A stretch of DNA of 64,000 nt, from positions 58,280,001-58,344,000 of the forward strand of contig OX597814.1 in the NCBI GenBank assembly GCA_951406725.2. The letters are read 5' to 3'. This document shows positions 1-61,622 of the stretch, one piece after another; within the stretch, counting starts at the first letter, position 1; every line of letters begins with the position of its first letter. This DNA is from Octopus vulgaris. Its lineage: Eukaryota. A program made the translations under genes and the position numbers. The notes under the pieces are model-generated. The model saw only the letters and a list, made by a program, of their open reading frames with translations, ran no database searches and had not been told where the DNA came from.

Positions 1-390
1 GGAGAGTTCTAAATAAGGGAAGGTAGTGGGTGATTTCTTCCGGTGTAAGGGAGATAATCGCTTAAAAATGTTTTTCCCTTTCCCTTAATGTGAATTTCTC
101 TGTAACAGTATGTTCGGATGGTTGAGTCTGGGCTTGTACTTTTCAATGAAGAATGTTTCCTTGTTTAGTCTAATTTGTGTTGATGATCCGAAAGCACATT
201 GGTAAAATGGAAAGATTAACAATTGTGGTAGTAGTTGCTTTGCGCATTTCTCATGTGCTCACTACAAGGTATCATTCTATATTCTGGGAATGCAATCTGT
301 TGTCGATGCAGTGTGCATCTACGTCTGAGTGATAGTCCCGTGGAACCCACGTAGTCTTGGTGGCAGCCCGAGCATTTTATGACATAAAAT

Positions 391-1256
391 TCATGCCACC
401 CAAGACACACTAAAACAAATATCCCCTTCAACGTTGCAAGAAGGATATGCACAATAGTGTCAGAACAAAATACCAGAAACTTTAGACTGCAAGAACTCAA
501 AAACACCCTAATTGACAGACATTACCCAGCTCAACTCATAGAGGATGGGATCAGACGTGCAACAGAAATCAACATAGAAACTTTAAGAAAAGTTCAACAC
601 AACAACACACCTTCCCCGAAAATACTACCTTACATATCTACATACAACCCCAGAAACAAAGAAGCCTTCACCATCATCACCCAGAATTTACCAATACTTC
701 ATAAAAACCCCAAATTAAAGGAAATTCTAAACAAACACCAAATCATTAAAAGCTACAAACAGCCTAAATCACTTAAAAAGATTCTCACAAAGGCAAAATT
801 GTCTTCTGAAATTACGGATGCAAGAGTAAAAAAATGTGGTAGATCGAACTGTGCAACATGTCCTAACCTGCTAGAAGGATCAGAATTCCACTTTAAAGAG
901 GGACAGAATTTCAAGATCAAATCTAACTTTACTTGTGCCTCTGAAAACATAATTTATGTCATAAAATGCTCGGGCTGCCACCAAGACTACGTGGGTTCCA
1001 CGGGACTATCACTCAAACGTAGATGCACACTGCATCGACAACAGATTGCATTCCCAGAATATAGAATGATACCTTTTAGTGAGCACATGAGAAATGCGCA
1101 AAGCAACTACTACCACACTTTTTAATCTTTCCATTTTACCAATGTGCTTTCGGATCATCAACACAAATTAGACTAAACAAGGAAACATTCTTCATTGAAA
1201 AGTACAAGCCCAGACTCAACCATCCGAACATACTGTTACAGAGAAATTCACATTAA
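391..1256 (+). pseudogene. PLE polyprotein C-terminus: RT thumb, Cys linker and GIY-YIG endonuclease, one frameshift near 1092
   Basis: Reads SCHPRHTKTNIPFNVARRICTI (thumb), CGRSNCATC (Cys linker), IYVIKCSGCHQDYVGSTG (GIY-YIG). After the frameshift it continues KCAKQLLPHFLIFPFYQ...RLNKETFFIEKYKPRLN to TAA at 1254-1256. Confidence 0.9.
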
Positions 1257-1387
1257 GGGAAAGGGAAAAAAATTTTAAGCGTTTATCTCCCTTACACCGG
1301 AAGAAATCACCCACTACCTTCCCTTATTTAGAACTCTCCGGAGCATAAACACAACGATAACTCTATTCAACATAAACATAACGTCAC

Positions 1388-1426
1388 AAGAAATTTGAAA
1401 AGCTACACGCGAAACCGGTCTTTCTT
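1388..1426 (+). ncRNA. Minimal hammerhead-like motif (U3/A8 core variant) in the PLE 3' UTR
   Basis: aagaaa-t-TTGAAAA-gc(tacac)gc-GAAA-C-CG-GTC-tttctt: stem I aagaaa/tttctt, palindromic CCGG at stem III, GUC triplet; stem II only 2 bp. Confidence 0.55.
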
Positions 1427-1639
1427 TAAAAATTATGTCATTATAAGAGAAAAAAATTTTTTTTTTTAATTTTGTAATATTCTTCAGACATATTGACGCA
1501 AATATATATATTTTTTAACATTTAAGCCTTCTGTCGTTTTTTCACTCTTTACTATTTTCTATATATTCACCCACGTGCTTTCAGAAACCAACTTTCTTAT
1601 CTATCTATCTATCTATATATATATATCTCTATATATATA

Positions 1640-1850
1640 TATGTCTTTGTGTCTGTGTTTCTTATCCTCCCCAACACTCCTTGACAGCTGGTGCTGTTGT
1701 GTTTACGTACCAGCGGTTCGGCAAAAGAGACCAATAGAATAAATACCAGGTGAAATAAAGATAAGTATTGAGGTTGTTTCATTCGAAAACAATTCCTCAA
1801 GGTGATGAACCAGCATAGTCGCAGTCTAACGACTGAAGCAAGTAAAGGTT
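1640..1850 (+). mobile_element. SINE family A, 3' half
   Basis: gcggttcggcaaaagagacc-atagaataa...cagcat..cgcagtc block shared with more than 10 copies in the window. Confidence 0.75.
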
Positions 1851-58320: not shown

Positions 58321-59404
58321 ATATAGATACATACATACATATATATATACATACATACATACATACATACATACTTACATATATATATATATATATATAT
58401 ATATATATATATTACATACACACACACACACACACACACACACACACACACACACACACATATATATATATATATATATATATATATATATATATATATA
58501 TATATATAATGTGCGTAGAAGGTAGAAAAGTCGATATGTATAAGGAAAATAAGACAAGGTAGAAAATGGTAAGATAATTTTATCATGAAATATATTTTAG
58601 TACCGAATTCCATCTTTAAGACATTTTCAACGGAGAGTAGAATAAGAAAAAATATTTAAATTGGAGAGAATATTTTGTAGGTATTCCCATTTTCCTTAAA
58701 TAGGTAAATATTTCGATAGTTTTCAGATAATCTGTCCCTCTTTCTATTCATTTGTGAATGCATCGTAGGTGGGTAGTAGTAATACATTGGGTACAGAGAA
58801 TTGATGGTTTAAGCAAGATCAGCCGAGGGAGGAGAAGGAGATAGAAAAGAAGAAGAAGAAGAAGAAGAAGAAGAAGAAGAAGAAGAAGAAGAAGAAGAAG
58901 AAGAAGAAGAGGAAGAAGAAGAAGAGGTGGAAGAAAAATAAGAAGGATGGTAGGGAGAAGGAGAGGAAGAAGAAGAAAGAATAGAACTAGAAATCTAAGA
59001 AGAGTAGGAGGCGGAGAAGCAGAAGATGGAGAAAGAGAAGTAGGAGTAGGGAAAGAAGAGAGAATAGGATAAAGAAGAAAAGAAAAAGAAAATACAGGAG
59101 TGCTGTGGCAAAGTAAATTGTTCGTGGAATCTTCTTTAATGGTCAAATGACCTAAAAGTGACCTGTTGTTGTCGTAGTTGTTTAGTTTAATCATTGTTTT
59201 AGGTGTTTAGTATTCTTAGTTATAGTATATCAAACAATGTGGCGTGCTGGCAAATTCGTTACTAGTGTCACTGTGCCGATAGTAGAATGATAATCATTTC
59301 ACTTTGTGATAGTTTGTGCTACAGACGTCCGTGTGTCTTTATATTATAGTAAACCCCATGGTCTGCACATATGTAGGTCTAATGTTAAGTTATAGACATA
59401 GTTA

Positions 59405-59610
59405 AGGCGGCGAGCATGCAGAATCGCTAGCATACCGGGAGAAATGCTTAGCGGTATTTCGTCCGTCTTCACGTTCTAAGTTCAAATTCTTTGCCTTTCA
59501 TCCTTTCGAGATCAATAAAATAGGTACCAGTTGAGGTTTGGGATCAATCTAATCGGCTAGTCCCTTCCTCCAAAATTGCTAGCTTTGTATCAAAATTAGA
59601 AATCAATTTT
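59405..59610 (+). mobile_element. SINE family C
   Basis: ggcggcgagc..gcagaatcg.tagc head, gttctaagttcaaattc B-box-like, tttgcctttcatcctttcg body; decayed minus-strand relatives near 18820..19010 and 27370..27720. Confidence 0.6.
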
Positions 59611-59710
59611 AGGTAATAGATATAATTTCATTCACACACACACACACACATATAAATATATATATATATATATATATATATATATATATATATATATACA
59701 GATATATATC

Positions 59711-59865
59711 TGTAAAATAATATGTCACAGTTATTCGGTAGTCAAGATAAAACTCTGAGTTTCGGATGCCAGATAACCGAAGAGATGGTGGCGTGGATTT
59801 CCACCTCGGTATCCGAAACTCATTTTCATCTTGGCTACCGAATAATAGTCACATATTATTTTACA
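59711..59865. repeat. Fold-back (~60-bp arms) flanked by (TA)n, with a hammerhead-like core across the spacer and right arm; tail to ~59935
   Basis: 59711..59770 versus 59808..59865; CCGAAGA-gat-ggtgg/ccacc-atcc-GAAACTC at 59777..59821; the tail matches 29696..29760. Confidence 0.8.
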
Positions 59866-61622
59866 AATAAATTCCTCTATCTACATAATATTGAGGCCAC
59901 CTTCTTCCTTTTGTTATCTTACCGTTGTTACCAATATATATATATACATATATATATATATATATATTCCCATGGGTAACCACGCAGATACAAGCAATCG
60001 CGTCAGGGCGCAAGGCCTATTGATTAGGATGTTGCTGTTACGGTCGTAAGATCGTTGTTTCCATTCAGGGAACGAATGTTGCGTTTTTTTCTGGAGCAAA
60101 ACACTTCCTGTTGCCCTGAGATCATTTCGAAACCTGACGTATTGTACATAGTGCACCTATTCGGGCAACGTGAAATATTAATATAAAATATAATATAGTA
60201 GACCTCCAAATTTTACCAAACAATGAACTTATCCAACGAAGACAAGAGAATATTCTATTCATACATGCATGTATACCTGCTCATAAATGAGCCCTTCCAC
60301 GAACCAGAACGCATGTGTGAATGTATAGTGCGTGTGCGAGTGTAATTGCTTGAGGTGATAGCAGAGTCTCGTAGTCCGAGGATGACACTTTAGAATATCT
60401 TCCAATTGCTTCTTGGCTCTCTTTTAACAGGACTCAGTTTTAACTGGCTGGTGTCTTGATAACTAGTATGTAGGATGAGAAAATTATTCTCCCTCATAGT
60501 ACCAAAGACATACCCCACATTTTCTATGAAAAATCAATAGATCTATAAATGTTTTCAAATATTACAGGAATGAGAGTTGCCATAGATTTACATGCCGTCA
60601 GAGCATGATAACGTCAATGCAATTCATGATAGTTTAATGTTTGCAAGTACACGTTTGTAATGAAGGCATAAATGGAGGGTCGTAGAACTGAAAAAGAAGT
60701 GTTTGGGCCAAGTGTTTAGTGGGTTACACAGATGAGTGGTGATAAGAGAAAGTCAGATACATACTTTATTCTAAAGTAAAATATTCAAATATTTTATTGG
60801 TCCACAGAAATAGTACAATGTATTATTTTCTCTGTCTTATATACGTATATATGTCATTTTAAAGTATAGATGTTATGACTGATTTGATAAATCTACCCCA
60901 ATAATCTATTTCTTCTTCTGTTCAAAACGAAATATTCTCCATTATTTTAACATAATTAAGAGGAATTGACTTCTAATGGGAAAAGATCATCTTAACAACT
61001 GCATATCTACGTAAGACAGATACTATCGTTTTAAAAAAAAGATATGAAACAATTTAACTTGAAGGAAGTGACTAATGTAATAATTCTTGACTTAATTAAC
61101 ACTGAAAAATTCCAAAGAAAATATAAATGACTCCTTTTTATAACTAGAAACAGAGGAACTTAATAATTTTGAAATGAAAATAGAAATACTAAATTTATTA
61201 GTTTCTCGGTTCAAACTTATTTGTAGTCTATAATGAACAAATTAGTTTTAATCTCATCACGTTTTCCTTTTCTTATTAAGAATGCTTCATTTATTTATAT
61301 TTCTTTTATTTCCATTTTCAACTAACAATGTATACAGAAATTCATTTAATTTGAAAATTTTAAACTAAAATTTTAATCTATATATGTATTAGTTTTAAAA
61401 CAACATATTATTAATTTTAATACAGCAATAATGGTAGACATACTGATATCGTGACACATATTTTCCTTTTGTGATTGGAAAATTAAAGCCCTTAAACTGA
61501 TACTATGTATAGCAATTTCTGACTTACGGAGGAGTCAATAATGAAATACTCTTGCAGCTATGATAGGTTGTCATACTCCGGAAAATCATCTATGAGTTCG
61601 GTTCAATTCTTTTCCCTTTATG

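Follow-up and report, generated by a model that had tools for sequence, protein, structure and literature searches.

Palindromes in (TA)n arrays of the Octopus vulgaris genome are Penelope-like element insertions and favour double priming on a spliced sense RNA

A stretch of 64,000 nucleotides of the Octopus vulgaris genome (assembly GCA_951406725.2, contig OX597814.1, positions 58,280,001 to 58,344,000; hereafter the window) raises the question of how six inverted duplications of mostly unrelated sequence came to lie in or against (TA)n arrays, with hammerhead ribozyme motifs facing outwards from their centres. The window belongs to a 2.8-Gb genome of 227 contigs that is rich in microsatellites and has a GC content of 34%. 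The original prediction attributed the palindromes to several families of Penelope-like elements (PLEs) sharing one integration route, either priming by the two ends of a (TA)n break on the RNA's 3' end or fold-back of a cDNA. The palindromes, which we named E1 to E6 in window order, are six PLE families, each linked to an open reading frame (ORF) for reverse transcriptase (RT) and GIY-YIG endonuclease (EN). Judging from their structure, they probably arose by twin priming, in which one sense RNA is used from both an inner and an outer site, with independent stops of the two cDNAs and end-joining between them. A shared route thus finds support, and priming from both ends of the break is the better of the two options.

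Six palindromes and their Penelope-like families

Self-comparison and direct reading of the window, extended for E1 by 10 kb upstream, recovered all six inverted duplications against (TA)n arrays. The hammerhead sense is + on every right arm and - on every left arm, and exactly one arm of each palindrome carries a tail, for E1 once its upstream flank is included; here, as in the retention of GIY-YIG coding by E1 and E5, what had been claimed from the letters holds. The claim that the arms derive from PLEs also proved correct: all six families were joined to RT/GIY-YIG ORFs, and every family's ORF sits upstream of that family's terminal repeat. The E1 family has an 811-aa ORF between 404-bp direct repeats, together with an inverted copy (locus L170), and its protein has many relatives at 95-96% with open frames of up to 859 aa. 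The 847-aa ORF of the E5 family (L253) is 57% identical to the E1 protein, RVT_1 being above cut-off for both. An 899-aa ORF in a 3,624-bp tandem unit (L172) represents E2, an 828-aa ORF E3, a 356-aa C-terminal ORF part E6, and RT and EN pieces with GIY-YIG above cut-off E4; Pfam gave no match for the E3 ORF or for two E4 RT pieces. We had considered E3 and E4 as separate non-autonomous families and dropped this idea because ORF-bearing parents were found. Exact short patterns of the families occur 1,530 (E2), 3,247 (E3), 9,624 (E4), 967 (E5) and 2,466 (E6) times in the genome.

By the motifs of PMC8557442, E1 and E5 appear to be Neptune-type and E2, E3 and E6 Hydra-type. The L170 and L253 proteins contain GxKF, DKG, a CX2-5CxxC linker and CCHH in the EN; Nematis shares the Neptune linker. 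For Hydra, the accessible part of PMC8557442 lists DKT, an RWK-like motif, a CxCX5C linker, CxxC plus CxH but no CCHH in the EN, and (TA)n targets. DKT is present in E2 and E3, CxCX5C in E3 and E6 and in degenerate form in E2, and CxxC plus CxH in all three, RWK being approximate only. E4 has a CX3CxxC linker and CCHH and is 24-27% identical to E1 and E5 across the RT core; its linker thus looks Neptune/Nematis-type, but it is distant from E1 and E5, and its placement in the Nematis clade would be a guess. An upstream 495-aa frame overlaps the 811-aa RT/EN frame of the E1 family (L170:2753-6498), with a similar arrangement in E5 (L253), consistent with the frameshifted ORF1 drawn in Fig. 1 of PMC8557442. 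In the E3 ORF (L351:1985-4468), RT and EN are separated by a long stretch rich in asparagine that resembles the N-rich inserts described in Adineta; E2 is Ser/Asn-rich at this place.

The Neptune-type left arm of E1 (1..388, - strand) is 5'-truncated and untailed and runs about 280 nt beyond the window's start, where its hammerhead and (TA)n flank lie. The right arm (388..1600, +) comprises a C-terminal ORF piece with thumb, CX4CxxC linker and GIY-YIG (open 388-1122), the 3' region, a hammerhead (1385-1427, +; U3-A8 core at 1395) and a tail of about 35 nt followed by (TA)n; the arms are 98% identical (1-388 versus 953-1339). The inverted arms of E2 and E6 are likewise visible. The Hydra-type left arm of E2 (7787..7976, -) is untailed, contains a hammerhead and reaches further 5', while the right arm (7977..8295, +; hammerhead 7995-8083, +, C3-G8 core at 8002) has less 5' extent yet is tailed (about 150 nt, 8146-8294). 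E3, also Hydra-type, has a tailed left arm (14020..14264, -; tail about 85 nt) with a spliced leader, exon junction 14247/14248 and hammerhead 14193-14242. Its untailed right arm (14265..14435, +) begins about 10 nt past the putative RNA start and has a spliced leader as well (exon junction 14283/14284, hammerhead 14289-14338), the arms being 100% identical over 147 nt. The left arm of E4 (29796..29977, -) is tailed (about 65 nt) and starts within the hammerhead core; the untailed right arm (29979..30118, +) is 97% identical to it, begins about 6 nt past the putative RNA start and carries a hammerhead at 29990-30040 (+; G3-C8 core at 29996). E5 has a long, untailed, Neptune-type left arm (44846..47242, -) made up of the last 50 EN codons, a CA-rich 3' region, 44-bp repeats and a hammerhead core at about 44925. 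The shorter, tailed right arm (47250..48050, +; tail about 48010-48050) passes abruptly from EN coding into the 3' region, its EN piece being connected to 47337 by an internal jump, and has a hammerhead at 47926-47968 (+; U3-A8 core at 47930). The E5 arms are 100% identical over 466 nt, EN coding is retained on both strands (about 47070-47336), and the fold centre lies at about 47245, not mid-spacer. The notion that the CA-rich middle of E5 is noise was discarded, since it aligns at 87% over 2.2 kb to other family copies; the 44-bp tandem repeat, variable in copy number, lies directly upstream of the E5 hammerhead (44943-45170, 47683-47912). The Hydra-type E6 consists of an untailed left arm (59709..59770, -) starting within hammerhead stem II and a tailed right arm (59769..59935, +; tail about 70 nt) with a hammerhead remnant at 59770-59830.

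A hammerhead on each insertion, as originally predicted, is correct in part: the motifs are family-wide, but E6 has no intact one (its left arm is partial and stem III of its right arm is mutated), and the left arms of E4 and E6 begin inside the motif and hold its 3' half only. An Rfam scan of the window had no hammerhead family among 150 of 151 matches listed, giving only hairpin miRNA models below threshold. A strict hammerhead descriptor found E3 and E5 (4 of its 5 matches; mean 0.2 in 30 shuffles) and missed E1, E2, E4 and E6, and a regular expression for the canonical core found E3 only, stem II of E2 being longer than allowed. The candidate motifs of E1, E2, E4 and E6 are supported by inspection and family conservation. 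The tertiary 3-8 pair is U-A in E1 (61/61 copies) and E5 (64/64), C-G in E2 (54/55), E3 (83/83) and E6 (31/32), and a reversed G-C in E4 (51/55), and stem II varies compensatorily across E3 copies. A reading of the E1, E4 and E5 cores as decayed was dropped because the 3-8 changes are paired and family-wide. The motifs resemble the minimal hammerheads of PLE pseudo-long terminal repeats (pLTRs), as far as the accessible part of PMC4209133 describes them, in being type I with a short palindromic helix III and U3-A8 variants, in forming opposite-strand pairs 100-700 bp apart and in having an intron that ends near helix I. U3-A8 is the natural variant described there, in contrast to the G3-C8 of E4, which appears in the accessible part of PMC11167929 as an engineered partial rescue; a titles-level literature search, with most subscription papers outside its reach, found no natural G3-C8. 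The hammerhead does not set the fold centre: in 18 of 41 E3 pairs one arm or both begin 3' to the 5' half of the motif, and 5' ends do not pile up near the predicted cut (1/44, 2/52 and 1/33).

One tail per pair and two internal priming sites

Polarity was scored among the matches listed, 100 each for E2, E3 and E4 and 91 on the window's contig for E5. Opposite-strand neighbours within 10 kb faced outward in 116 cases and inward in one, with 10 further neighbours on the same strand, so that the predicted polarity bias is real and orientation is not random. Their spacings range from 97 to 9,045 nt; fold centres are therefore variable and, as anticipated, not fixed per family.

For the analysis of tails, 139 pairs were scored from fetched loci and one duplicate was dropped, leaving 138, of which seven were corrected by hand (six containing tandems, one with an interrupted tail). 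Sampling was uneven: E1 pairs came via protein matches, E6 and 30 E3 loci via DNA search with the window copy, and the remainder from pattern lists, in which long spacers were deliberately picked. Partial tandems of the kind that form pLTRs, together with an inverted truncated copy, are seen in L170, L172 and these 138 pairs. A tail is present on exactly one end in 136 of the 138, while free site choice by each arm would give one tail in about half of the pairs. (TA)4 or longer runs lie near both outer ends in 122/138 pairs compared with 5% of random points in the window and its 10 kb upstream, and the association with (TA)n is therefore not due to chance.

The inner and outer sites, at which the untailed and tailed arms end, both fall at AU-rich stretches just upstream of the ORF start, the outer site lying 35-150 nt (the tail length) beyond the inner one. 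In tandem copies the tail runs on into the ATG of the next ORF, about 25 nt downstream in E1 and about 45 nt in E2. Priming is therefore internal, with both ends within the RNA leader, and not at the RNA 3' end as had been proposed. This two-site internal priming matches the in vitro behaviour of PAc, the Poseidon PLE of Anolis carolinensis, which has a predicted dimer, acts on an AT-rich target, nicks and extends both strands and starts RT at two internal sites bracketing the tail (PMC11167929, accessible part). A hammerhead just upstream is a further likeness, and in PAc it is not needed for insertion. The PAc sites, however, are 111-118 nt inside the ORF (PMC11167929) whereas those described here precede the ATG, the families here are Neptune/Hydra-type, and the inverted structure is not derived in the accessible part of the PAc work.

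Simple fold-back of a cDNA, the other option of the original prediction, copies the short arm from the long one, and the short arm can thus have no tail that is absent from the long one. Arm length could be compared in 64 pairs; 74 were left out (18 of E6, the others equal-armed or unresolved), E6 being excluded because its query favoured long tailed arms (14 to 1). The tail is on the longer arm in 36 and on the shorter arm in 28 of the 64, which disfavours simple fold-back. The junctions between the arms (n=64) show microhomology of 1-10 nt in 33 cases, are blunt in 7, contain added bases in 22 and have longer overlaps in 2, a spectrum that would fit end-joining of two free ends.

E5 offers a view of a filled and an empty site. 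A second copy of the locus (48783-52049), separated from the first by a 100-N gap (48683-48782), is 97-98% identical to 42161-44846 plus 48051-48682 and lacks E5, with a plain (TA)n array at 51353..51473 (no strand assigned) in its place; it is probably the other, uncollapsed haplotype. Both arms entered one (TA)n run, within which any target-site duplication is hidden; a 9-bp target duplication is seen at the non-TA E4 copies L147 and L148. At these two loci (window's contig, about 6.245-6.254 Mb) tandem-duplicated intronless frames are each preceded by an E4 copy; we take the frames to resemble dCMP deaminase.

Some insertions are more complex. Among three E3 loci (L038, L039, L035) there are inversions nested in one another, a leader block of 1.74 kb that occurs twice, and an EN piece that runs directly into the terminal repeat, which suggests template jumps. 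Among the E6 pairs L193-L211, whose flanks differ, one and the same fold centre recurs, with an inner length of 93 and located where there is an internal inverted repeat, and this fixed-centre look, reminiscent of miniature inverted-repeat transposable elements (MITEs), was probably produced by microhomology.

Spliced leaders and putative RNA start sites

Long E3 copies contain an initiator-like sequence, a short exon, a GT donor, a low-complexity stretch of 1.06-1.84 kb and an AG acceptor just before the hammerhead. In short copies exon and acceptor are joined exactly, at either of two donors 4 nt apart, and both arms of the window's E3 are spliced. Bunching of copy ends at a start site was examined in E2, E3, E4 and E6, the counts for E2, E3 and E4 being made by eye on the matches listed (for E3 100 of 448 exon matches, one spurious row removed; for E4 100 of 2,630). 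All 17 E3 copies ending at the exon start are spliced, compared with 3 of the 82 that continue upstream, the other 79 keeping the intron; in 11 of the 17 the position before it reads G against a genomic C. The two arms could be compared for splice state in 21 of 41 E3 pairs (18 had a truncated arm, 2 were unclear) and agreed in all of them, 14 being spliced and 7 unspliced. In E4, 59/100 copies stop within about 5 nt of one A and 41 continue upstream; where the start A is kept (n=44), the preceding base is G in 26, C in 12, T in 4 and A in 2, the genomic base being C or T. Within a window of 4 nt, 16/100 E2 copies come to an end, and a G is seen in 3 of the 6 in which the A is kept.

The extra G on short E3 and E4 copies likely comes from the RNA cap. 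Short copies made from cap-started, spliced RNA would explain why full-length copies keep the intron. A first exon may need a nearby cap for its recognition, which is a possible reason for intron retention in read-through RNA.

Probable twin priming, its alternatives and their meaning

In the proposed course of events, the element protein, acting as a dimer as we infer, would nick the two strands of a (TA)n run, and the 3' ends so exposed would prime reverse transcription on the same sense RNA, one at the inner and one at the outer site. Synthesis of the two cDNAs would proceed towards the RNA 5' end and either halt, at independent points, or reach the cap and run off; end-joining would then connect them 5' end to 5' end. 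Twin priming of this kind would produce outward polarity, variable centres and exactly one tail, and the hammerhead would travel along because it is located between the RNA start and the priming sites. RNA from the element's own promoter, presumably capped and in E3 spliced, would yield mini palindromes of 100-300 nt bunched at the start site, and only read-through RNA from an upstream tandem copy would give ORF-bearing copies, mostly with the leader intron kept.

Several observations weigh against this scheme. One pair has tails on both ends (L152) and another on neither (L063), and in E5 the tail is on the longer arm in 8 pairs and on the shorter in 3. Arm-to-arm identity exceeds that to other copies (0.990 versus 0.959 in E1, 0.981 versus 0.850 in E5), but the partner arm is the nearest copy in only 55 of 74 pairs, and near-identical arms can also come from gene conversion. 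For one third to over half of the listed matches, the 10 kb around them contain no inverted partner that matches exactly; pairing is thus frequent but not a necessity. As regards the RNA start, E6 showed no peak at the tested A, the E3 and E4 start-site rows include duplicated loci, and microhomology with the opposite arm would equally account for about 11 of the 26 G's in E4 and for 8 of the 11 in E3. That an extra G is a copied cap is, moreover, our assumption, on which the literature checked did not bear.

The one-tail pattern could also be produced if the cDNA of a single sense RNA folded back and was copied to a hairpin, one arm of which was trimmed by the EN at the inner site, either ahead of integration or in its course, a process close to the 'EN-mediated resolution' suggested in the accessible part of PMC8557442. 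A trimmed hairpin would have the same tail pattern, a shared splice state and near-identical arms, and the TA-rich nature of the inner sites, which are like the target, the microhomology at 33/64 junctions and the recurrent E6 centres at an internal inverted repeat all speak for it. We nevertheless consider this course unlikely, since a tail on the short arm (28 of 64 pairs) would require the primary cDNA to give up the end at which it was itself primed, so that a free intermediate is needed, 29/64 junctions are blunt or have added bases, and PAc extends both strands in vitro (PMC11167929, accessible part). The concordant splice states bear on a variant in which twin priming uses two RNAs held by a protein dimer, whose geometry would impose an inner start on one and an outer start on the other. 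Two RNAs explain polarity, independent truncation and end-joining equally well, and RNAs from one source locus would share variants, but not one of the 21 scorable pairs mixes spliced and unspliced arms though both forms are common, and the one-tail rule requires an extra assumption; two templates are thus quite improbable. Self-priming on an antisense transcript, proposed in PMC3846280 (whose accessible part leaves the choice between antisense and sense template open), would give the head-to-head geometry described there and preserve introns, as is seen in the 79/82 long copies. The spliced short copies speak against it: they lose the intron at a sense GT-AG with two donors and bunch at the sense start with an extra G, neither of which an antisense template gives, and we regard this origin as hardly credible. 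MITE-like DNA units moving whole, or assembly and long-read chimeras, might be suspected from a recurring E4 spacing of 201 and from the N gap and duplicated segment beside E5, yet are very improbable, as a single insertion inside a Helitron-like unit accounts for the 201 class, the other spacings spread over the whole range given above, PLE ORFs are linked to all six families, an empty site exists for E5 and contigs from public runs show joints at other centres.

Joints between E3-family arms occur in these contigs at many other centres (15 of 29 listed) and speak against long-read chimeras, although most come from one run and their sides are short (21-28 nt); no public-run contig spans the window's E3. 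Instead of MITE features we found variable spacings, asymmetric ends and RT-bearing parents. The recurring spacing of 201 occurs in 5/21 E4 pairs, from which alone the Helitron-borne share is known. Helitrons begin with TC, end in a hairpin followed by CTAG, and insert between A and T without target-site duplication. The Helitron-like non-autonomous unit of the window (29301..31242, -; about 1.95 kb) has a TC 5' end and a 3' hairpin with CTAG, and lies between A and T; its cargo comprises an E6-family tail piece (about 29690-29759) as well as the E4 palindrome. The E4-bearing unit was found with different flanks at 5/5 other loci fetched with this spacing, its 3' end being common to all five and its 5' end region to four. 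The window's E4 therefore arrived as Helitron-like cargo, not by insertion here. The unit additionally holds a SINE-like repeat and a 107-bp tandem repeat. Elsewhere in the window, at 55955-56943, there are two overlapping open frames, presumably related to Tc1/mariner transposase.

The architecture described here, with its inverted copy truncated at the 5' end, single tail, preference for (TA)n and minimal hammerhead, has already been published. In their accessible parts, PMC8557442 (Fig. 2) reports for EN-containing (EN+) PLE insertions an inverted truncated copy, a single tail and a (TA)n bias for Neptune and Hydra, and PMC3846280 and PMC2377424 the same insertion architecture for Pen2a_Av and D. 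virilis Penelope. Our insertions agree with these in their partial tandems, inverted 5'-truncated copy, one-end tail, head-to-head arrangement and (TA)n bias. They differ in tail length (35-150 nt here, 30-40 nt there), in that many consist of only two leaders, in that the one-tail rule and tail versus arm length were counted, and in the spliced and extra-G copies, of which the accessible parts of those accounts have none. The six families are thus new members of known PLE clades, and the gain is mechanistic evidence, not a new kind of element. In L1 twin priming, a single RNA is primed by both ends of the target, microhomology serves for their joining, and the outcome is an inversion of non-overlapping parts with a poly(A) end, whereas here both cDNAs would cover the same leader and produce a duplication. 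The origin of PLE inverted ends and tails and of intron retention is called open in the accessible parts of PMC3846280 and PMC8557442. A literature search, with most subscription papers and supplements outside its scope, found no paper stating spliced genomic PLE copies or PLE twin priming, and bioRxiv 10.64898/2026.07.22.740005 and PMC13282606 do not address inverted stubs in their accessible parts.

In summary, double priming and a sense, spliced template that is likely capped are favoured by the copies of at least two, probably three, clades within one genome, and the counts make a standing mechanistic question testable, at exact sites. Small tail-out palindromes, of which there are thousands, are stubs of PLEs and not MITEs, for which they may plausibly be mislabelled, and some have spread further as Helitron cargo. 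Tentatively, and with rather less confidence than for the families studied here, twin priming of obligate geometry on a single sense RNA may extend to all EN+ PLE clades, with intron retention as a by-product and mini palindromes as a fossil map of start, splice and RT sites. If this is true, promoter-started, capped and spliced RNA would yield leader-sized palindromes only, and unspliced read-through RNA alone would regenerate the full element; the thousands of mini palindromes in the octopus genome would then record, for every family, where transcription starts, where splicing occurs and at which two places RT begins.

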